Positions 608-25,134 of a stretch of DNA of 64,000 nt are shown in pieces (position 1 is the stretch's first letter; every line of letters begins with the position of its first letter). Position numbers and translations under genes: made by a program. Location of the stretch: the sequence record OR515477.1; one strand, 5' to 3'. Source of the stretch: Escherichia phage Es2. A model generated the notes under the pieces. That model was not told where the DNA came from. It was given only the letters and a program-made list of their open reading frames with translations, and searched no databases.

Positions 608-1264
608 TTGGAAAAGTTCTTACAATTATTAACGGTACTGCTCCAAGAAGCGAAAGATCCAGCATCGCTTCTTAAACGTCTGCTAACTATCTTAGTTGCT
701 GTCATTATTTTCTTATTTGTTAGTAATACTAGCGAGGTGATGTCATTCTTAAAGACTTTCTCCACGTCTGCGGTTCTACAGGATGTTCAAACTCAAAGGA
801 TAGATAACTTTCCTAATGTAGCTAGAGAAAAAAGCATGGTACTCTTTTCTCAAACGGGTGCGGATGCTGTTTTTGTCGTCAAGTATAAACCCGATGCCAT
901 TAATGATTATTCTAACATTATTGCATGGGAAAGCAATGCGCAATTAGATAGGGCTGACTTGGCCGATAAAGCGGTAAATAAAACGTCTGAGCTATATAGA
1001 CGTCACTTGGAAGGCTTTAACTACGCATCGGATTTAAGTGTAAAAGTAAATAAATACATGGGGTTAGATATACCTGCGTTTAAGAACGTTACTTTTAATT
1101 ACATATACACTTGTCCATATTTCAATCTAAACAATATCTATGCTGGATATATTGGTATTGCTTGGAAAGATAATCCTGTAGATGCAGCCGATTCTGAGAA
1201 ATTTAACGAGTATTTAACAAAGCTCTGTTCCCCACAACAGAGATCTTTAGGTAGATCAATATGA
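608..1264 (+). CDS. holin, T4 gpt-like (single N-terminal TM, large periplasmic domain)
   Basis: 218 aa; TM segment LLTILVAVIIFLFV; C-terminal CPYFNLNNIYAG matches the T4 holin T motif CPYFNLDNIYAG as recalled; TTG start; directly upstream of endolysin. Confidence 0.55.
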   Translation: MEKFLQLLTVLLQEAKDPASLLKRLLTILVAVIIFLFVSNTSEVMSFLKTFSTSAVLQDVQTQRIDNFPNVAREKSMVLFSQTGADAVFVVKYKPDAINDYSNIIAWESNAQLDRADLADKAVNKTSELYRRHLEGFNYASDLSVKVNKYMGLDIPAFKNVTFNYIYTCPYFNLNNIYAGYIGIAWKDNPVDAADSEKFNEYLTKLCSPQQRSLGRSI

Positions 1265-1674
1265 GTTTTAAATTTGGTAAAAATAGTGAAAAACAATTAG
1301 CTACCGTTAAGCCAGAGCTACAAAAAGTAGCTCGTAGAGCTTTAGAATTATCTCCATATGATTTCACGATCGTACAGGGTATTCGTACAGTAGCACAAAG
1401 TGCCCAGAATATTGCTAATGGTACTTCATTTTTAAAAGATCCTAGTAAAAGCAAGCATATTACTGGGGATGCCCTTGATTTTGCTCCATATATTAATGGC
1501 AAAATTGATTGGAATGATTTAGAAGCATTTTGGGCAGTTAAAAAGGCTTTTGAACAAGCAGGTAAAGAACTAGGCATTAAACTTCGTTTTGGTGCTGATT
1601 GGAATGCTTCGGGAGACTATCACGATGAAATAAAACGTGGTACCTATGATGGCGGTCATGTCGAACTAGTTTAA
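1261..1674 (+). CDS. endolysin, L-alanyl-D-glutamate peptidase (M15-like zinc peptidase)
   Basis: 137 aa, same length as T5 endolysin (from memory); H-x-x-G-D-A-x-D and D-G-G-H-V-E zinc-ligand motifs. Confidence 0.7.
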   Translation: MSFKFGKNSEKQLATVKPELQKVARRALELSPYDFTIVQGIRTVAQSAQNIANGTSFLKDPSKSKHITGDALDFAPYINGKIDWNDLEAFWAVKKAFEQAGKELGIKLRFGADWNASGDYHDEIKRGTYDGGHVELV

Positions 1675-1685
1675 TTGATAACTGA

Positions 1686-1708
1686 GGCGGGAATATTCCC
1701 GCCTTTTT
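1686..1708 (+). terminator. rho-independent terminator
   Basis: Palindrome GGCGGGAAT/ATTCCCGCC followed by TTTTT. Confidence 0.65.
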
Positions 1709-1751
1709 AGGCAAAGGGGGCTTTAATAATTTTTGAAGATAGGAGAAAGCC

Positions 1752-2168
1752 ATGTTTGCAGAACTATTCACTATGATGCTGCTAGGTATCTGGAAAATAA
1801 GTCTAGTAGTATTCGTTTTAATGATAGTTTTTACTATCCTTGCATTAACTACCCGAAATAGCTTACTAATAAAGGTTATTCACGGACTAGAGTATATAAT
1901 TATGGGTTCATTCGGCGTTTGTAAATGCAATTGCCATAGAGATACGAAATATTGTTGGTTATGGATGGAACTAGAGAATCCTATATCCATAGCTTTGGCT
2001 GTTTCATTCGGCATGATTCTTATGGCCCTTACTCTAGCATTAATTCCTTTGATGTTAGCTGGGGGAGTTACAGCGTATTTCACCCTTTTCTCCCCGATAC
2101 TTATGTACTCAATTTACCCAATAACTATGTATCTAGTTAGGAAAAGATTTATACATGCAGTAGATTAA
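1752..2168 (+). CDS. multi-pass membrane protein, unknown function
   Basis: 138 aa with three to four hydrophobic segments; RBS AGGAGA upstream. Confidence 0.4.
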   Translation: MFAELFTMMLLGIWKISLVVFVLMIVFTILALTTRNSLLIKVIHGLEYIIMGSFGVCKCNCHRDTKYCWLWMELENPISIALAVSFGMILMALTLALIPLMLAGGVTAYFTLFSPILMYSIYPITMYLVRKRFIHAVD

Positions 2169-2675: not shown

Positions 2676-2958
2676 ATTAGTATATCTATTGAAAGGTTCT
2701 ACTTGCAACCCTTGCAAAATGTTTGAGCCAGTATTTGATAAAGTAGTCAATGAATATAATTTGGAAGTCCATAAAGAGACTGATAATACAGAATTAATGC
2801 AGAAATTTGGCGTACGCCAAGTTCCTGTAGTAGTTCTGGCAGATCGCTTACCTAATGGTCGAGTAGAAGCTAATCATATTTTGATTGGACGTCAGCTTCG
2901 TAAAGAAACTATGCACGAAGCTATTAAAAATTTCCTGGATGATAATCCAGAGGATTAA
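2668..2958 (+). CDS. thioredoxin/glutaredoxin-like protein
   Basis: 96 aa; C-N-P-C redox-type motif near N-terminus after a beta-strand-like LVYLLKGS. Confidence 0.4.
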   Translation: MSKLVYLLKGSTCNPCKMFEPVFDKVVNEYNLEVHKETDNTELMQKFGVRQVPVVVLADRLPNGRVEANHILIGRQLRKETMHEAIKNFLDDNPED

Positions 2959-2965
2959 TAAACCA

Positions 2966-2997
2966 AGCCTGATCTTAGCGGATCAGGCTTTTATTTT
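2966..2997 (+). terminator. rho-independent terminator
   Basis: AGCCTGATC-ttagc-GATCAGGCT followed by TTTATTTT. Confidence 0.65.
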
Positions 2998-2999
2998 AC

Positions 3000-3028
3000 T
3001 TGCTTTCAGCTAAAAATTTTGGTATAAT
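3000..3028 (+). promoter_or_regulatory. sigma70-type early promoter
   Basis: TTGCTT, 17 bp spacer, TATAAT. Confidence 0.55.
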
Positions 3029-3055
3029 ACTTATATAAATTGATTGGAGGATTAA

Positions 3056-3301
3056 ATGTTAGCGGAACAAGCAAAACGTTTAGCTAGGATAAATAGAGCT
3101 GCTCTTCTCAAGAGCAGAAAGAAGCCGTATAGATACGTTAAAAGACGGATTCTAGCTTCTGTAGAGGCTGGGGGTTCTTTTATACAATTTAATCGTGATG
3201 AAATTAGTTATGAAGCTATAAAAGCCCTCTATAAAGATGGTTATACTCTAAAACTATCAAATAATTATGGTACAACTATTTTAAATGTTATTTGGGAATA
3301 A
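3056..3301 (+). CDS. hypothetical early protein
   Basis: 81 aa ORF with RBS GGAGGA. Confidence 0.4.
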   Translation: MLAEQAKRLARINRAALLKSRKKPYRYVKRRILASVEAGGSFIQFNRDEISYEAIKALYKDGYTLKLSNNYGTTILNVIWE

Positions 3302-4167
3302 TTATGAAAAAAGAATTTAATGTACATAAAACACTAGTAGTACCTGATGATGTTAACTTATTCTTTGTTGGTGATATTCATGGATGCAACGATTTACTAG
3401 AAGATGCACTACAATTAGCTGGATATAACGGCAAGAAAGATTGCGTTGTATGCGTGGGAGATTTAATTGATCGAGGCACGCAGAACCTACAAGTTTTAGC
3501 TAAATTCCTGTATAATCCACGCTTTATCAGTGTCCGTGGTAATCATGACCAATTTATGATTGTGGGAGATTGGGCTAACTGGATGTATAACGGTGGTATG
3601 TGGGCTATGAATGAACTAGATGCAGATACCATTAAAAATATTGCCGAAGACATGGCTGAAAAAATGCCAGTATTCCTAACTGTTAAACATCGCGGCAAGA
3701 AGTATGGTGTTGTTCATGGTGGTGTACCTTTTACATACAAAGAATGTGGTAATGAAGTAGAAACCCCAGTATGGGATAATCTTATTGCACAAGTAGAAGC
3801 AGCTAAGGAAGACCCACACGACCATCCTGGATACCATGTTGAGCCATACTTATGGGATCGAGATGTAATCCAAGAAATAGGTTTTCACTTAGCTAAAAAT
3901 GGTGAAGAACACTCATATTTCCAGCGTTATGCAGGGTTTAAAGAGAAATACATGGTAGAAGTACCTCCAGTTAATGGGGTAGACTTTGTATTTCATGGAC
4001 ATACCGGAGTACCTTACCCGATTTTATACCAGAACCGTGTTTATCTTGATACTGGCGGTGTTTTCAACGGGCAGTTGACGGTTGCGCAAGTTAATGATGA
4101 AACTGGGAAAATCACAACATTTACCACGCTTCGAGAAGATAGCTGTGGTGTACAGAGGATTCTTTAA
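3292..4167 (+). CDS. serine/threonine protein phosphatase (calcineurin-like metallophosphatase)
   Basis: 291 aa; GDIHG, GDLIDRG and GNHD metallophosphatase motifs. Confidence 0.7.
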   Translation: MGIIMKKEFNVHKTLVVPDDVNLFFVGDIHGCNDLLEDALQLAGYNGKKDCVVCVGDLIDRGTQNLQVLAKFLYNPRFISVRGNHDQFMIVGDWANWMYNGGMWAMNELDADTIKNIAEDMAEKMPVFLTVKHRGKKYGVVHGGVPFTYKECGNEVETPVWDNLIAQVEAAKEDPHDHPGYHVEPYLWDRDVIQEIGFHLAKNGEEHSYFQRYAGFKEKYMVEVPPVNGVDFVFHGHTGVPYPILYQNRVYLDTGGVFNGQLTVAQVNDETGKITTFTTLREDSCGVQRIL

Positions 4168-4454
4168 TGAATGATAGAATGAAAGAAGTACAAGAAGAAT
4201 TACGAGCAATGCGTATTGATGCCCTTCGTTGGAGAGCATTAGTTAATGCTTTCGTCAAAGGAGATACCGGAGTAATATATTCTGGAATAGCAGTCAATTT
4301 TTGTTTTAATTCTCCTGCTGAAATAGAGATAGAAACAAGGCTTACTACCTACCTTAATGAGGTAGACCTTAAGGAAGGAGAGACTCCCGGGGAGTTTAAA
4401 ACTAGAGTATTAACTACCTGGGTTGATAATTTAATACAAAAAAGGAGTAAGTGA
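4167..4454 (+). CDS. hypothetical early protein
   Basis: 95 aa ORF, start overlaps upstream stop (ATGA). Confidence 0.4.
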   Translation: MNDRMKEVQEELRAMRIDALRWRALVNAFVKGDTGVIYSGIAVNFCFNSPAEIEIETRLTTYLNEVDLKEGETPGEFKTRVLTTWVDNLIQKRSK

Positions 4455-5044
4455 TGAAGGTTAAATTCTGGTCAGACTTGCACTTAGACCACCCTGGAGC
4501 ACTACGTTTCCGTCCGTGGTTTAAGAACATGAAAGAGCACGATGAGTATATTCTAGATACTTTATCCAAGCATATTGGTAAACGAACAAAACTTATTTTG
4601 CTAGGAGATATTGCAGTAGGTCGTGAAGGTCTGGCCAAATTAAAGTCGGTTATCCACAATGTCCCTAATCAACTCATTATGGGTAATCATGATGCGGAGC
4701 GTCAAGGACTGAGTATTAGGGACTTAGCGGAAGTTTATGACGATATTCAAGCTCTAGGCAAACAGACTGGAGGTGGCAAAAAGTTTTGGCTATCTCACTG
4801 CCCTTTGCACCCTAATGAACTTCGTGGCAAACTAAATATTCACGGACATGTACATACTACTTCTTTACGTGATCCACGTTATATTAATGTCTCATTTGAA
4901 ATGAGTAGAACTCCAATTCCACTAGAGGATATTGTGTCTGGTAAGTTTACTAGTTACGATAGAGTGGTTAATTGTACTACCGGCGAGGTATTACAAATAG
5001 GAGAAGACGTAGCTGCTGTATTGCGTGGCGATATAAATGTCTAA
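4451..5044 (+). CDS. metallophosphoesterase-like protein
   Basis: 197 aa; LLGDIAVG, GNHD and GHVH motifs. Confidence 0.5.
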   Translation: MMKVKFWSDLHLDHPGALRFRPWFKNMKEHDEYILDTLSKHIGKRTKLILLGDIAVGREGLAKLKSVIHNVPNQLIMGNHDAERQGLSIRDLAEVYDDIQALGKQTGGGKKFWLSHCPLHPNELRGKLNIHGHVHTTSLRDPRYINVSFEMSRTPIPLEDIVSGKFTSYDRVVNCTTGEVLQIGEDVAAVLRGDINV

Positions 5045-20936: not shown

Positions 20937-21671
20937 ATGAGTCAAGTTAAAACGAATATTACCCGCTCTTTCCCGCATATTTCCCGCGTTATGATTTGGG
21001 ATCTGGACGGCACTATCATTAATTCTTTCCATCGTGTAGCGCCTTGTTTTGATAGCGAGGGCAATTTAGATTTAAATAAATATAAAAATGAAGCCTGCAA
21101 ACATCATTTAATAATGCAGGATTCATTATTGCCATTAGTTGAATATATGCGCCAGTGTATGAATGACGCTAACACGTTAAACATTATTTGCACCGCTCGA
21201 CTGATGAGCAAGTCAGATTATTATTTCTTGCGTAAACAAGGATTGCGGGGGCGTGGAAATAGCAATATCCGCGTGTTTTCCCGCGATACCCTGCACAAAT
21301 ACTTTAAAGCTGATAAAGTTAGCGAGATATACCACAGTAAGGACGCAGTTTATAAATCTTATTATTTTGAATTATTTAAACAATTATATCCGAACGCTGA
21401 TTTTACAATGATTGATGATCATAAAGGCGTGTTAGCGGCGGCGGCATCATACGGATTTAAAACGCTGGACGCACAAGCCGTTAACGATATTCTATCAATC
21501 GGTGTTACATTGATTGGTGAAACCTTTATTGATGAATCGCTCGACGATGATAATGATTATCAGTTCCTAGCAGACCGCCTGCAATTATGTTGGGAAGGTA
21601 TGACCGAGGAAGAACGCGCAGAATATAGTTGCAGTCCTCAACAGTACATCGAGAAATTAAAAGTTGCATAA
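20937..21671 (+). CDS. dmp: 5'-deoxyribonucleotidase (HAD superfamily), Dmp-like
   Basis: 244 aa, same length as T5 Dmp (from memory); WDLDGTI HAD motif I; AATCCCTTAAAT leader. Confidence 0.65.
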   Translation: MSQVKTNITRSFPHISRVMIWDLDGTIINSFHRVAPCFDSEGNLDLNKYKNEACKHHLIMQDSLLPLVEYMRQCMNDANTLNIICTARLMSKSDYYFLRKQGLRGRGNSNIRVFSRDTLHKYFKADKVSEIYHSKDAVYKSYYFELFKQLYPNADFTMIDDHKGVLAAAASYGFKTLDAQAVNDILSIGVTLIGETFIDESLDDDNDYQFLADRLQLCWEGMTEEERAEYSCSPQQYIEKLKVA

Positions 21672-21828
21672 TAATTAAAGTTGAAATAGTCACGGTGTGT
21701 AATGATAACATGCCGTGACTATTAGTCTGCTAAGTACCGGGCGGTAATGAGACTCATTCTCATCTGGTGGGCCACTGGACACACCTCCATGTGTAATCTT
21801 ATGAAATTTGGCAAAAAGGTAATTAGCG

Positions 21829-22032
21829 CTATTTACGGACTGACTGCTCAAAGACTTCCCGCCACAGAGGGTCAGTCTTAACTAGATTATTAATATGCTC
21901 AATAGCTTCATCAAATCTCATGAATCCTTCCGGGATTTCCGAAGACTTAGGAAAAACTTGCAGCATCTCCTGTGTGATACCCATCTTTTCAAGATCTTCT
22001 TGGGTTAACTTAAACTGTCCGAATTCTTTCAT
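21829..22032 (-). CDS. hypothetical protein (67 aa)
   Basis: ORF with stop/start overlap to upstream gene. Confidence 0.4.
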   Translation of the reverse strand: MKEFGQFKLTQEDLEKMGITQEMLQVFPKSSEIPEGFMRFDEAIEHINNLVKTDPLWREVFEQSVRK

Positions 22033-22274
22033 GAACTTCTCCTGTCTACCGGCTTATCTCCAGATTCTGACATACGAAATCTCTTTCGTGACGCCCGAGA
22101 ACCGTCCGCCCACTCCCTCTCAAACTCCGCACGTTTCTTCGCAAACCTCCGCTCTCTTTCCGCAATCTCCCGCGACACTTCCGCAATATATTTACGATGC
22201 GTATTAATAGCCGCAGTCATTCCGAAAACTCCCGCGATTACCCCGATAATAAAAGCAATTACAATACTAAACAT
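22029..22274 (-). CDS. small N-terminal-TM protein with charged C-terminus (81 aa)
   Basis: MFSIVIAFIIGVIAGVFG TM then Arg/Glu-rich helix. Confidence 0.4.
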   Translation of the reverse strand: MFSIVIAFIIGVIAGVFGMTAAINTHRKYIAEVSREIAERERRFAKKRAEFEREWADGSRASRKRFRMSESGDKPVDRRSS

Positions 22275-22461
22275 CTAGTTCTCTCTCAATTTGCAGAATA
22301 CGAGTGCTATCACAACGTTGCAATTCTACTAATTTTTCTATAGCAAATTGTTGTTGTTTTACCTGGGCCTCTAGAGTTTTTAGGCGAACGTACACGGTGT
22401 AAGAAATAATGAAAGCTGACCAAACTGCTAGTACTATTAATATAGCTACTACTTCCATCAT
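22267..22461 (-). CDS. small N-terminal-TM coiled-coil protein (64 aa), paralog family
   Basis: MMEVVAILIVLAVW TM; overlapping start/stop with neighbours. Confidence 0.4.
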   Translation of the reverse strand: MMEVVAILIVLAVWSAFIISYTVYVRLKTLEAQVKQQQFAIEKLVELQRCDSTRILQIERELDV

Positions 22462-22565
22462 TTACGTTTCTCCAGTAACAGAGTTTCAATTCTAGCTAAG
22501 TGGTTATCTAAAATACATTGCCCGATAATCACAATCCCTAGTAGTGCAATAATTACCCATTCCAT
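22458..22565 (-). CDS. small N-terminal-TM peptide (35 aa), paralog family, not in ORF track
   Basis: MEWVIIALLGIVIIG...RIETLLLEKRK, similar to the N-terminus of the next ORF. Confidence 0.3.
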   Translation of the reverse strand: MEWVIIALLGIVIIGQCILDNHLARIETLLLEKRK

Positions 22566-22720
22566 TGTTTACGCTCCTCTAATAAAATTTCAATCCTAGA
22601 TAATCTGTTACTCAACTGCATTAATTTAGCTTCTACTTGTGTTATAGAGGTATCTATTACACGTAAGCCTACAAAGAGAAGTATCAGTAAGATGAATATG
22701 CCAATAATTACCCATTCCAT
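22553..22720 (-). CDS. small N-terminal-TM coiled-coil protein (55 aa), paralog family
   Basis: Start set at MEWVIIGIFILLILLF; RIEILLEERK C-terminus. Confidence 0.35.
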   Translation of the reverse strand: MEWVIIGIFILLILLFVGLRVIDTSITQVEAKLMQLSNRLSRIEILLEERKQWNG

Positions 22721-22848
22721 TAAATCCACCCCGCCATAGCTGCTAACCAAAAACCTACGAAAATAAAGAATAGGATAGTTCCGAACCCAAAACTATTTAT
22801 CCAGCTATCATATACCTCTCCACGTCTGCTCTTTCTTTTGTTTGACAT
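22720..22848 (-). CDS. small C-terminal-TM peptide (42 aa)
   Basis: Start set at the ATG with GGAG 8 nt upstream (MSNKRKSRR...); basic N-terminus then hydrophobic tail. Confidence 0.3.
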   Translation of the reverse strand: MSNKRKSRRGEVYDSWINSFGFGTILFFIFVGFWLAAMAGWI

Positions 22849-23024
22849 ATCTTTCATGCTCCTATAAATGTGATTTTTGAAATATTCTATAATTTGTGCA
22901 CAACCGACCATGCCTGTGAACTCATAGAAGGACTTCTACTTTTCTTACATAGTGGTTTCTGCCAATATACCATCCAAGAAATAAAAAATTTAGTTTACTT
23001 GGATGTCTTTTTGTTTTATACTAA

Positions 23025-23291
23025 TTACAGGTAATTAGATTGCTCTAGTTTAAATTTACAATCACCGTATTTAAGGTCAAACTGACTGAGATCCCACCAC
23101 CCAAACTTAGTACGGAGCTGTACTACTGGAAAGCGATCTCCCTTAATACGAACTTTTTGAACCTTGAGGCCGTAATGTTCCTCTCCAGCACCACCAAAAG
23201 ATTTTACAAACCCCGTACAAAATGGTTTGGGGGCAGGTGCACAACCAGATAACATAACTGCGGCAACTAGTGCAATCACAAACTTTTTCAT
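23025..23291 (-). CDS. llp: lipoprotein, Llp-like (receptor-blocking lipoprotein)
   Basis: Signal peptide with lipobox LSGC; divergently transcribed from the adjacent RBP gene as in the T5 llp/oad pair. Confidence 0.55.
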   Translation of the reverse strand: MKKFVIALVAAVMLSGCAPAPKPFCTGFVKSFGGAGEEHYGLKVQKVRIKGDRFPVVQLRTKFGWWDLSQFDLKYGDCKFKLEQSNYL

Positions 23292-23376: not shown

Positions 23377-25134
23377 ATGGGTTTTTTCGCTGGAAAATAT
23401 AGCGATGGTAAGACCGTACTATCTTTAAATACTGAATCTGGTGGTGACATTAATCGTCACTATAGCCCAAATGCCAATAGTATTTTTCATAGTGATATGC
23501 CATTTGTCCTAGTTGATGGTACTTACGAGGCTGGGTTAGGTAATGCCGGGAATGGGTTTTTTGTATGTCAAATGCCCTCTGACATAATAAATATTAAATC
23601 TAATGACCCGGGTAGAGTTATACTAACTGCTATTGAAATTAATGGTACTCACAGAGCTTTTCTTAATGGTACTCAGAGTAAGGTTGGTCAAACTATAGTT
23701 GCCACTCAGGCAGACCCCTTTAGGTCTTTTGCCAGTGTTTCTCAAACCAGTGGATTTGCATTTGGTAATAGTCTAGCATCTGGCACTTATAACTACAACC
23801 CCTCTCTAGGGCATGAAGAATCTATCTCTAGAAGTGGCACAGGGGGTACTACGTTACATAGTACGTATCATGGTATAGTTAGGCCCGGTGGTGGAGCACC
23901 TGTAGGAGTTACTGTTGCAGAAGCCTTTGCACAATTAGGTTTTCCTACTAATAGTAGCACAGTACCTGTAGATGGTAATAACCCATACTATTGGGATCCT
24001 GGATGGATGGCTCCTCTAGGAGCAGCATATAGGGGGCATGATTGGTTTTATGTTTGCAATTCTAATATACGTGGATATGGTGGGGTTAGGCAAGGGCTCC
24101 CTGGTAATGTAAATACTATGTACCATGATGGTGGTAATAGATTTGTTTGTAGAGGGTCTACTACTAATTTAGCTAACCAGTCGGGTGACTCTACAATACT
24201 ACAGGACTGGTATAATATAACTCCTACTAAGGTTATTTGGTATGTTCTTAATTTAAGGTACTCAAATGGTGGAATGAGTATTTCAGGTAACCCTTTCACT
24301 GGTTCTGATATTCTTATATCTCCTTCTAATTTTATAATTAAAGGGGTAAGTCTCCCTAATACCGGGTATAAATTTATTAATCAGAATGCTTTTGGTAACC
24401 TAGGTTACCGTCCTGATATGGAGTATATAGGGAATAACGCTGCGTATACTGGGGTTTTTGGGGATACCACTGCAAGGTGTGAACTTGTAGGATCTAGTAA
24501 TGGAGGGTTGTGGTCTCCTGTAGATTATGGAGGTGCCAAATCACAGATTAGCATTTACAAATTTGGAGCAGGTAAACAGTGGTATGTAAACTCTAACGAT
24601 AATACTATTGGTAATGAGCATGGGGTTGTTTGGGGACCATCAGCAGTTCCATTACGACTTTTTGGAGGAAATGTAGGTAGCTCTTACATGGGGGATGATA
24701 TTACTCCTAGCTATCCAGGAACTGGGGATAGGTACGTTGGTTTATCAACTATTGGGCTAGGTATACCTGGTGGCAATGCTACAGTAATTCTTACTACTGA
24801 AGTTATATCAGGTAATCTTAACTGTGCAGGTGTCCCAGCTAACACATGGAATAATGGTGTGTTTCAAGTACAAGGAAGAAAAGCGCATAGTTATAGTAAT
24901 GGAGATGCAATATTCCACCAGATTCTAACGCTACCTGTGGGCTATCTAGTACCTTTTCATACTACAGCAGCTTTTAGATACACCCCTAATAATGCTTTAA
25001 GCAGGAATAGTTTTATATATACCGCTAAAAACCTAGGAAATGGAAATGTAGAGTTAGGGGTAGTTATGCATGTCAGTTTAGGTAGTGCAGTTTTCTTACC
25101 TAGACTAAGAGTAACAGTTCAACGCCTTACCTAA
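23377..25134 (+). CDS. receptor-binding tail protein, pb5-like
   Basis: 585 aa, Gly/Asn/Ser/Thr-rich; position between llp and terminase; receptor specificity not determinable. Confidence 0.55.

Follow-up and report, generated by a model that had tools for sequence, protein, structure and literature searches.

The run of small overlapping genes between the lipoprotein gene llp and the long terminal repeat of Escherichia phage Es2 is the T5.159-T5.162 operon, a series of six translationally coupled genes encoding proteins of 42, 55, 35, 64, 81 and 67 aa (here g1 to g6). The stretch analysed, a window of 64,000 nucleotides from record OR515477.1, comes from a T5-like phage of the genus Tequintavirus, and the ORFs flagged in it are real genes, orthologues of T5.159, T5.160, T5.161 and T5.162. 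In the main, this recovers hypothetical genes that had been annotated before: the array is already known from T5, whose record has carried the description "contains single transmembrane domain" for T5.159-162 since 2004. Judged from sequence, the array proteins are very probably bitopic membrane proteins that are real and expressed, and our best guess for the operon as a whole, still a tentative one, is that it forms a dispensable, oligomeric accessory module of the inner membrane.

Gene layout and distribution

All six genes are read from the minus strand. The T5.159 orthologue g1 (22720-22848, 42 aa) matches PHROG 8596 (E=1.1e-31); g3 (22458-22565, 35 aa) is the T5.160 orthologue and g2 (22553-22720, 55 aa) an additional T5.160 paralogue, both of PHROG 6369; g4 (22267-22461, 64 aa), the T5.161 orthologue, matches PHROG 5851 (E=3.7e-32), and g5 (22029-22274, 81 aa), the T5.162 orthologue, matches PHROG 6447, labelled 'membrane protein' (E=2e-45). 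The last gene, g6 (21829-22032, 67 aa), encodes a soluble, acidic protein of PHROG 20937. Stop and start codons overlap at every junction, namely TAATG at g1/g2 (1 nt), 13 nt at g2/g3, ATGA at g3/g4 (4 nt), ATGTTTAG at g4/g5 (8 nt) and ATGA at g5/g6 (4 nt), and junctions of these types are found again in the related loci examined.

The first-pass annotation had described five head-to-tail minus-strand ORFs with overlapping stops and starts. Five one-helix genes do lie at 22029-22848, and two of the ORF starts had been over-extended. The first ORF, given as 63 aa (to 22911), is the 42-aa g1, whose ATG at 22848 is served by an AGGAG ribosome-binding site, the 63-aa extension being open only in a minority of relatives and not conserved; the second, given as 65 aa from a TTG at 22750, begins at the ATG at 22720. 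The run also continues past the limits first drawn for it, into the sixth coupled gene, g6. Upstream of g1, a spacer (22849-23024, minus strand) leads to the llp-type lytic-conversion lipoprotein gene (23025-23291, minus strand; 88 aa, lipobox LSGC), which is a neighbour of the array and not a member, and divergently from llp runs the gene for a pb5-type receptor-binding tail protein (23377-25134, plus strand, 585 aa), given here as context only. At the other end, mapping from the T5 and Stitch annotations places the start of the long terminal repeat at 21780-21781, 48 nt past the g6 stop, and dmp (20937-21671, plus strand) is already inside the repeat; the array, with g6 as the final gene, lies in the last transcription unit of the unique genome. 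Compared with T5, gene order, coupled junctions and the position from llp to the right terminal repeat are identical, and protein identity with T5.159-162 is 86-98% over the aligned parts. The window differs from T5 in carrying the additional paralogue g2, with a 4-aa read-through extension, and g6, which T5 lacks, and in having an llp/pb5 module of a different, non-homologous type.

Profile matches combined with synteny between llp and the terminal repeat place the array in T5 and 45 other loci. In this census g1 and g5 are always present, and the number of middle genes between them varies from one (11 loci) through two (24-25) to three (10). About 449 phage records match g1, roughly as many as there are Tequintavirus and Epseptimavirus records (about 440 by TerL identity); g2 occurs in only 36 of these T5-like records (about 8%), and g6 is an optional gene found in 61 phage records. 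The array was not found in Serratia and Vibrio Demerecviridae and is hence unnecessary for the T5-type life cycle, and since neither plasmids nor 5,426 complete E. coli genomes gave a match, it is not a prophage moron. At the equivalent position, the Klebsiella T5-like phage Roth37 encodes two unrelated proteins of 74 aa and 153 aa with a transmembrane (TM) helix and a coiled coil; by shuffle comparison their likeness to the array proteins is one of architecture only, and they were rejected as relatives.

Membrane helices, tails and paralogy

Each of g1-g5 contains one hydrophobic segment (Kyte-Doolittle 17-residue mean 2.2-3.2), so that their earlier description as small single-pass membrane proteins is borne out by one predicted TM helix per protein. 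In g2-g5 this helix stands right at the N-terminus, after 0-3 non-basic residues, while g1 has the mirror-image architecture, a basic N-tail (MSNKRKSRRGEVY) followed by a C-terminal hydrophobic helix, and is predicted to be tail-anchored with its N-terminus inside. Behind the TM helix, g3, g2 and g4 continue into an unbroken leucine-zipper-like helix of two, five and about 5.5 heptads, respectively, in which 73-88% of the a/d positions are LIVMF, versus 10-21% elsewhere. Together with the AlphaFold2 model of g4, predicted as one continuous helix over residues 2-63 (pLDDT 89.6; a fold search on this single-helix model would be uninformative), these positions uphold the coiled-coil tails of the first reading as heptad helices of coiled-coil type. 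By the positive-inside rule we infer that the soluble parts would face the cytoplasm, clearly for g1, g4 and g5 and ambiguously for g2 and g3, a call made from flanking charge bias only.

Local duplication had been proposed for three members of the array, and it holds for two of them. The paralogy of g2 and g3 is found by hhalign (probability 94-97%, E=5e-10) and by Smith-Waterman alignment (z=6.2; 0/2000 architecture-preserving shuffles), the motif MEWVII...RIE(I/T)LL is present only in these two, and the PHROG 6369 profile matches g3 over positions 1-35/35 (E=1.7e-25) and g2 over positions 1-34 with an insertion (E=5.4e-11). The TM helix of g3 carries a conserved polar GQC and is followed by the two-heptad tail LARIETLL, the whole protein being very strongly conserved (GQCILDNHLARIE); in g2 the TM helix is followed by a five-heptad helix in which phi-x-[RQK]-[LIV]-E-x-x-phi occurs twice, spaced 14 residues. 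These comparisons show that g2 arose by duplication of g3 and is longer by exactly two heptads owing to an internal duplication. The window g2 exceeds all its relatives by 4 aa because the TAA stop reads CAA. The third proposed paralogue, the MMEVVAI gene g4, is no closer to g2 and g3 than shuffled TM-plus-tail sequences are (Smith-Waterman z<=1.2 against architecture-preserving shuffles), and its hhalign probability of 10-28% is comparable to a spurious 48% between g1 and g2; g4 matches PHROG 5851 only, outside the 6369 family, and shares with g2/g3 an architecture. Its tail is more conserved than its TM helix: none of 21 TM positions is invariant, versus a strongly conserved C-terminus (QRxDxxRIxQ[IL]ERELDV) in all sequences except one truncated one.

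The TM helix of g5 bears a small-xxx-small pattern, with G11, G15, G18 and A22 invariant or near-invariant, and leads into a strongly basic helical tail. Its conserved core comprises residues 1-66, after which at least four alternative C-terminal endings are found among relatives. The g6 protein is coupled to g5 by their ATGA overlap; its AlphaFold2 model is of low confidence (pLDDT 68.7), insufficient for a fold search.

All six genes are under purifying selection, with dN/dS of 0.12-0.31 (g1 0.20, g3 0.115; g3 and g5 within 0.12-0.25), as compared to 0.16 for llp. Because it is conserved and under purifying selection, the array is far more than a set of chance ORFs. Conservation might in principle act on the DNA itself, without any protein function, for instance because the locus is close to the boundary of the terminal repeat or of packaging, or because llp/pb5 swapping uses it for recombination arms; indeed, the array abuts the terminal repeat, the alternative 3' ends of g5 fall exactly at the repeat boundary, and the adjacent llp/pb5 module is swapped between phages. 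However, synonymous change is 3-9 times commoner than non-synonymous change in every array gene, reading frames, starts and coupled junctions are kept across the 46 loci, and g4 variants of only 42-46% identity still keep their amino-acid motifs, which makes a purely DNA-level explanation hardly credible.

Neighbours, lysis and host targets

That the array lies next to a receptor-blocking lipoprotein gene is correct, 23025-23291 encoding a lipoprotein of Llp/Cor type (PHROG 1119, E=1.8e-26; lipobox by Pfam LPAM_1), and in most Tequintavirus and Epseptimavirus genomes the two are same-strand neighbours; neither the window nor T5 has a canonical terminator separating llp from g1. Promoter and terminator scans gave nothing above chance: an 8-bp hairpin 3' of llp is unexceptional (z=-0.25) and has no U-tract, a TGnTATATT extended -10-like element in the spacer is not conserved in relatives, and the spacer has no conserved promoter. 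Only over its final ~35 nt does the spacer resemble an acidic ORF of 100-108 aa, at the 3' end of that ORF; Stitch, Shivani, PS3-1 and a further locus (L010) have the ORF intact at this position.

This arrangement could suggest that the array helps Llp, by aiding its export or function or by blocking a receptor-proximal step of injection. Between T5 and the window, however, the array genes are 86-98% identical, whereas Llp has no detectable similarity and pb5 is only ~30% identical; moreover, array composition does not track the receptor (pb5) type, and Shivani retains g1-g3-g4-g5 with neither llp nor any lipobox ORF. A lipobox ending a signal peptide ([LVI][ASTVI][GAS]C) is absent from g1-g6, LPAM_1 matching llp only; the sole Cys close to a helix end is in IIGQC of g3, with Q at -1. 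According to structural work, Llp by itself is enough to block FhuA (PMC9586334). Arguing a role from adjacency to llp, as was first done, is thus weak, the role of an Llp helper is very improbable, and we infer that the array works independently of Llp and of receptor identity.

A second role first proposed was in lysis timing. On such a reading, the array proteins would be antiholins or holin-modulating peptides whose partner in the inner membrane is the T5 holin. They are indeed small and membrane-bound by prediction, oligomerising TM peptides are typical of holin control, and g4 has a marginal match to PHROG 739, an Rz-like spanin family (E=0.11). On the other hand, the lysis cassette of the window, with a 218-aa holin-like protein (608-1264) and an endolysin (1261-1674), lies ~20 kb from the array, and no holin family match was found for the array proteins among family and PHROG profiles, nor any linkage to the endolysin gene. 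T5-type cassettes are reported to include already a holin, an endolysin and both spanins (PMC4342426). With two-component spanins the array shares, besides the g4 match, an N-terminal TM helix followed by a coiled coil and a lipoprotein gene nearby. Nevertheless, Rz-like i-spanin tails are of ~100 aa or more and those of the array are put at 16-40 or 16-57 aa, i-spanin N-termini are basic whereas those of the array are acidic or absent, so that opposite topologies are predicted (the charge bias placing the array C-termini inside), and the proven role of Llp differs from that of an o-spanin lipoprotein. An i-spanin identity, also at odds with a position outside the lysis cassette, was rejected, and lysis timing in general is unlikely.

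CRISPRi-ART knock-down of T5.159-162 in T5 gave no fitness phenotype ('Not Fit'), and none on lysis is reported (PMC11879866 supplement). The 'Not Fit' call was shared by llp, by the endolysin gene lys and by a number of virion genes (PMC11879866 supplement), and for this reason the sensitivity of the screen in T5 is limited; that loss of the array has no phenotype, which would speak against a role of the kind first proposed, is thus indicated only in part. The coverage of HIDEN-SEQ excludes T5-like phages, T5.159-162 are not mentioned in the main text of the literature searched, and the papers on BF23, T5.026, T5 mutagenesis and Llp structure are silent on the array genes.

Sequence and profile searches yielded no homologue with known function. 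Only T5-like phage proteins came back when g5 and g2 were searched by word index against 5.8 billion proteins, and likewise when a g5 alignment was run as a profile, exhaustively, against 1.84 billion representatives; sequence searches of Pfam, NCBIfam, PADLOC and PDB produced no match past threshold. Two metagenome loci (L072 and L073, 39% identity) were rejected, as they have no TM helix, stand in an unrelated context and have no more than a chance FEREWSDGS word in common with the query. The best resemblance to a host protein is that of g5 to LapA_dom (PF06305; E=2.6e-4, 21.3 bits, curated cut-off 28), and FtsL (NF049847) reached 17.2 bits, below its curated cut-off of 50.

These resemblances bear on a rather unlikely reading in which the array proteins are host-takeover or anti-defence effectors, a cytoplasmic zipper or basic tail binding and inhibiting an inner-membrane or membrane-associated target of the host, for example a protease, the divisome or an abortive-infection system that acts on the membrane, with variation in copy number and length reflecting an arms race. 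Accessory or counter-defence loci typically show what is seen here, namely high turnover (of the middle genes), alternative C-terminal endings (of g5) and homing endonucleases on the flanks; a conserved g4 tail beside a drifting TM helix would suit a specific cytoplasmic binding surface, and by CRISPRi-ART the array is dispensable on a laboratory K-12-type host. However, none of the six proteins matched any PADLOC-DB family at E<=1 and anti-defence families gave no match either, g3 and g5 are very strongly conserved and not diversifying, and the weak likeness to FtsL-, ZapG- and LapA-type bitopic proteins lies below all curated cut-offs and is no better than architecture-level.

Proposed role and known systems

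Our preferred reading, the accessory module, starts from the possibility that the proteins associate in the inner membrane, as homo- or hetero-oligomers, which we propose because of the translational coupling, the zipper tails, the GQC of g3 and the small-xxx-small motif of g5; on these sequence features the case for such a complex is evenly balanced. In it, g1 and g5 would be the constant parts, and the one to three zipper subunits between them, of differing length, would be interchangeable. The module would come into play once second-step DNA transfer is over, on the cytoplasmic side of the inner membrane, and its most plausible role would be to stabilise or guard the membrane of the infected cell, that is, inner-membrane exclusion or control of membrane integrity, although this guarding role is conjectural and doubtful. 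Superinfection exclusion or injection control, as the first-pass annotation had suggested, is at best possible; cytoplasm-facing tails, if correctly predicted, would be unexpected for proteins meeting an incoming phage in the periplasm and count against exclusion. Hence that annotation is confirmed in part as an observation and supported in part as an interpretation.

In T5, DNA is transferred in two steps, after which the membrane repolarises. A more specific and quite improbable version of the module takes this up: since its genes lie on the part of the unique DNA that enters last, it would not be made before the second step of transfer has ended, and would serve 'entry completion'. The length-graded zipper subunits g3, g2 and g4 would join the constant g1 and g5 on the cytoplasmic face, and together they would shut or guard the channel for phage DNA and seal the membrane again, accounting for repolarisation after T5 DNA transfer and providing a second, receptor-independent layer of exclusion.

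Of the unexplained genes in a classic model phage, those of the array rank with the most widespread. What is new here is descriptive: the origin of g2 by gene duplication plus internal duplication of two heptads, the variation of the array middle from one to three genes, and the independence of the array from llp. Should the proteins turn out to form an inner-membrane complex with a defined role in exclusion, re-sealing or host manipulation, a missing piece of T5 biology would be supplied, and phages would offer a case of bitopic coiled-coil proteins that are modular and variable in length.

Among known systems, the host bitopic families LapA_dom (PF06305), ZapG-like (PF06295), FtsL (NF049847) and GspM (NF040576) share with the array a TM helix at the N-terminus that leads into a charged or heptad helix, but the array scores are all under their curated cut-offs (28, 33.5, 50 and 60 bits, respectively). 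Llp/Cor lipoproteins are encoded by the adjoining same-strand gene and, like the array proteins, are small and located in the envelope; they are outer-membrane lipoproteins, whereas the array proteins are predicted to be bitopic in the inner membrane and have neither a lipobox nor similarity to Llp/Cor. T4 Imm and HK97 gp15 are small inner-membrane superinfection-exclusion proteins that are non-essential in the laboratory and have demonstrated exclusion phenotypes. The array proteins resemble them in small size, phage origin, predicted inner-membrane location and dispensability in the laboratory, and differ from them in being unrelated in sequence and in the predicted cytoplasmic location of their bulk.

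Overlapping small genes beside llp

The neighbours of the array confirm a T5-like phage. On one side lie llp, the lytic-conversion gene for an Llp/Cor-family lipoprotein of 88 aa with a lipobox (23025-23291, minus strand), and the gene for a 585-aa pb5-type receptor-binding protein (23377-25134, plus strand), followed by ORFs where annotated relatives place the small and large terminase subunits. On the other side, inside the long terminal repeat, is dmp, encoding the pre-early 5′-deoxyribonucleotidase (20937-21671, plus strand), with the repeat boundary at about 21780, as projected from the repeat starts annotated in T5 and Stitch. The 1.7 kb around the array matches 299 phage records, nearly all of them Escherichia or Salmonella T5-like phages.

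The array comprises six minus-strand genes arranged head-to-tail: g1 (22720-22848, 42 aa), g2 (22553-22720, 55 aa), g3 (22458-22565, 35 aa), g4 (22267-22461, 64 aa), g5 (22029-22274, 81 aa) and g6 (21829-22032, 67 aa). Their junctions are, in order, TAATG, a 13-nt overlap, ATGA, ATGTTTAG and ATGA; coupled junctions of the same types recur across related loci, and a purine-rich Shine-Dalgarno-like element is found at every start. All six genes are under purifying selection, with dN/dS of 0.20, 0.30, 0.12, 0.31, 0.25 and 0.22 for g1 to g6, compared to 0.16 for llp. Overlapping coupled junctions and purifying selection together rule out chance ORFs, so all six, including the overlapping small ORFs listed in the first-pass annotation, are real protein-coding genes; a purely DNA-level role for the region is highly improbable, well below the guarding and host-takeover roles considered later. 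Two gene limits have to be redrawn, as the 63-aa first ORF was over-extended (the longer frame is closed in most relatives, and the AGGAG site serves the ATG at 22848) and g2 starts at the ATG overlapping the g1 stop. Opposite g5 and g6, a 95-aa plus-strand ORF (21920-22207) probably just reflects the GA-rich codons of the g5 tail.

The observation is real, but for the most part these genes were already annotated in T5. The T5 record (NC_005859 / AY543070) lists the orthologues of g1, g3, g4 and g5 as T5.159-T5.162, flanked by llp (T5.158) and the right terminal repeat, and annotates each of them "contains single transmembrane domain"; g2, an extra copy, and g6 have no T5 orthologue. The corresponding PHROG families (8596, 6369, 5851 and 6447, with 20937 for g6) carry no functional label beyond a generic "membrane protein," and no main-text discussion of T5.159-T5.162 was found in the literature searched. 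What interest remains is that a model phage carries this near-universal set of genes and none has an assigned function. The Stitch RefSeq record leaves g1 (2248-2382) and the short g3 (2382-2486) unannotated, and other records label array genes misleadingly, for example as 'tail fiber protein', 'tail assembly protein', 'receptor blocking protein' or 'H-N-H endonuclease'.

Paralogy and predicted architecture

Three of the ORFs had been taken as paralogues, which holds for g2 and g3 but not for g4. Both g2 and g3 match PHROG 6369, their profile-profile comparison (hhalign) gives a probability of 94-97% (E=5e-10) with one insertion, and their Smith-Waterman score (z=6.2) exceeds all 2000 shuffles in which transmembrane (TM) and tail segments were kept separate. 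The motif phi-x-[RQK]-[LIV]-E-x-x-phi is present in one copy in g3 (LARIETLL) and in two copies in g2 (ITQVEAKL and LSRIEILL), exactly 14 residues or two heptads apart, likewise in the variant of phage PS3-1; this spacing identifies g2 as a gene duplicate with an in-register internal duplication. Moreover, both genes open with the same ATGGAATGG sequence (ATGGAATGGGTAATTATTG), the first 19 nt being identical in the window, preceded by the overlapping TAA stop of the upstream gene, an arrangement consistent with unequal crossing-over. Every other g2 copy found has 51 aa and a 1-nt TAATG overlap, whereas in the window, uniquely, the stop TAA reads CAA and g2 runs four codons (QWNG) into g3 (22553-22565). 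For g4 (MMEVVAI...), hhalign gave 10-28%, no better than a spurious g1-g2 value, with z<=1.2, and g1 and g5 are unrelated to the other array genes.

The proposal of single-pass membrane proteins agrees with the one strongly hydrophobic segment found in each of g1-g5. In g2-g5 it follows an N-terminus of 0-3 non-basic residues, in g4 and g5 basic residues come directly after the helix (the g5 tail is net +7), and g1 has a basic N-tail (KRKSRR) with the helix at its C-terminal end. By the positive-inside rule, the soluble parts of g1, g4 and g5 would clearly be cytoplasmic; for g2 and g3 the rule is ambiguous. Uninterrupted heptads make up the tails of g2-g4, where LIVMF residues occupy 73-88% of a/d positions vs 10-21% elsewhere, and AlphaFold2 models g4 as a single helix (residues 2-63, pLDDT 89.6). 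The TM helix of g4 drifts (0/21 positions invariant) and its C-terminal QRxDxxRIxQ[IL]ERELDV is strongly conserved even across variants 42-46% identical overall, while g3 has an invariant GQCILD-NHLARIE segment and g5 conserves FEREWxDGS as well as G11, G15, G18 and A22 in a small-xxx-small pattern. That the array proteins form oligomers is suggested by their coupled translation, zipper tails and helix-packing motifs. Past residue 66, g5 shows at least four alternative endings in relatives (MSESGDKPVDRRSS, EFRPEHRFDDPSMR, AKVSDEE and I[DN]GKS); such variation in the last 14 codons (22029-22073) suggests a recombination junction immediately ahead of the terminal-repeat boundary.

Relationship to llp and candidate roles

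A membrane role had been argued from adjacency to llp, and this argument is weakened. Array proteins of T5 and the window are 86-98% identical beside Llp proteins of undetectable similarity and pb5 proteins that share about 30% identity; the Llp of T5 and that of BF23 are likewise non-homologous (PMC10644984), and pb5 type does not predict array composition. Furthermore, phage Shivani, reported without llp (PMC4342426), retains g1-g3-g4-g5, and the interval from its receptor-binding gene to the array contains no lipobox ORF. The array thus has no functional tie to Llp or to a particular receptor, and a role as Llp helper is quite unlikely, ranking below guarding, host takeover and lysis timing. 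The llp-g1 interval holds no canonical terminator and no conserved promoter, so llp and the array may be co-transcribed. About 25 nt past the llp stop lies an 8-bp hairpin (CAUCCAAG...CUUGGAUG; 22966-23000) with a 19-nt U-rich loop, no U-tract and an unexceptional folding energy (z=-0.25), whose pairing is kept in some relatives only via G-U wobbles on the llp-sense strand. Epseptimavirus, Shivani, PS3-1 and locus L010 carry a 100-108-aa acidic ORF (MQ[DE]xEK[SP]FQEP...) between llp or the receptor-binding gene and g1, overlapping the g1 start (Stitch 1995-2309; Shivani 2630-2956); in the window spacer (22849-23024) only a ~35-nt 3′ remnant is recognisable, and T5 retains a deleted version.

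No array protein matched Pfam, NCBIfam, PADLOC or PDB above threshold, and sub-threshold matches to LapA_dom, ZapG, FtsL, GspM and Rz-like proteins reflect only TM-plus-helix architecture. In a genome-wide T5 CRISPRi-ART knock-down screen, T5.159-162 and llp were all "Not Fit," that is, without fitness phenotype (scores -3.55 to -4.11, p=0.24-0.91); the screen is insensitive in T5, since "Not Fit" was also scored for several virion genes (ltf, N4) and the endolysin gene lys, and TerL reached only "Semi-Fit" (PMC11879866 supplement). The evidence best fits a dispensable, oligomeric accessory module of the inner membrane, which would be expressed after second-step transfer and would act at the membrane's cytoplasmic face. 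Among candidate roles, membrane guarding or exclusion ranks first, as a tentative guess, with a host-takeover or anti-defence role, possible but doubtful, close behind. Lysis timing, also proposed earlier, is unlikely and ranks below both, because the lysis cassette lies elsewhere (608-1674) and spanins are already reported as part of T5-type cassettes (PMC4342426). In the T5-type lysis region (608-2168, plus strand), the gene for a holin-like membrane protein of 218 aa (608-1264) overlaps by 4 nt the one for an endolysin of 137 aa (1261-1674), and a multi-pass membrane protein of 138 aa is encoded at 1752-2168.

Distribution and counterparts in other phages

Among 50,697 phage records, 440 carry TerL at >=95% identity, about 449 g1, about 398 g3 (34-aa short form included, many matches partial or weak), about 313 g4 or its 42-46%-identical variant, 61 g6 and 36 g2. 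Both g1 and g5 occur in 46/46 distinct loci; between them stand one middle gene (g3-short or g4 variant) in 11 loci, two (T5 type) in 24-25 and three in 10 (g2-g3-g4, or gx-g2'-g4 in PS3-1). In one metagenomic T5-like contig the 104-nt g3 slot between g1 and g4 (L066, 2210-2314) has no detected ATG-initiated g3 ORF, which may reflect mutation of the start or stop codon, or a pseudogene. Several relatives have HNH/AP2 homing-endonuclease genes at either array end (L009/L013 2934-3281; Shivani 2811-3413 and 4025-4522; L060 2700-3197) or, in PS3-1, within the g1 start (1679-2227), so that the locus looks like a hotspot of homing-endonuclease traffic.

Protein database searches confine the array families to T5-like phages of enterobacteria, and no member turned up in plasmids or in 5,426 complete E. 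coli genomes. More distant relatives differ: Serratia phage Kamaji and Vibrio phage VPT02 carry no comparable genes. Another of them, the Sugarlandvirus-like Klebsiella phage Roth37, has no lipoprotein at this position and no sequence similarity to the array; where llp plus array would be, it encodes two minus-strand proteins of 74 aa (630-854) and 153 aa (165-626), both of which start with a TM helix and contain a coiled coil; a Ser-rich tail is present in the larger one.
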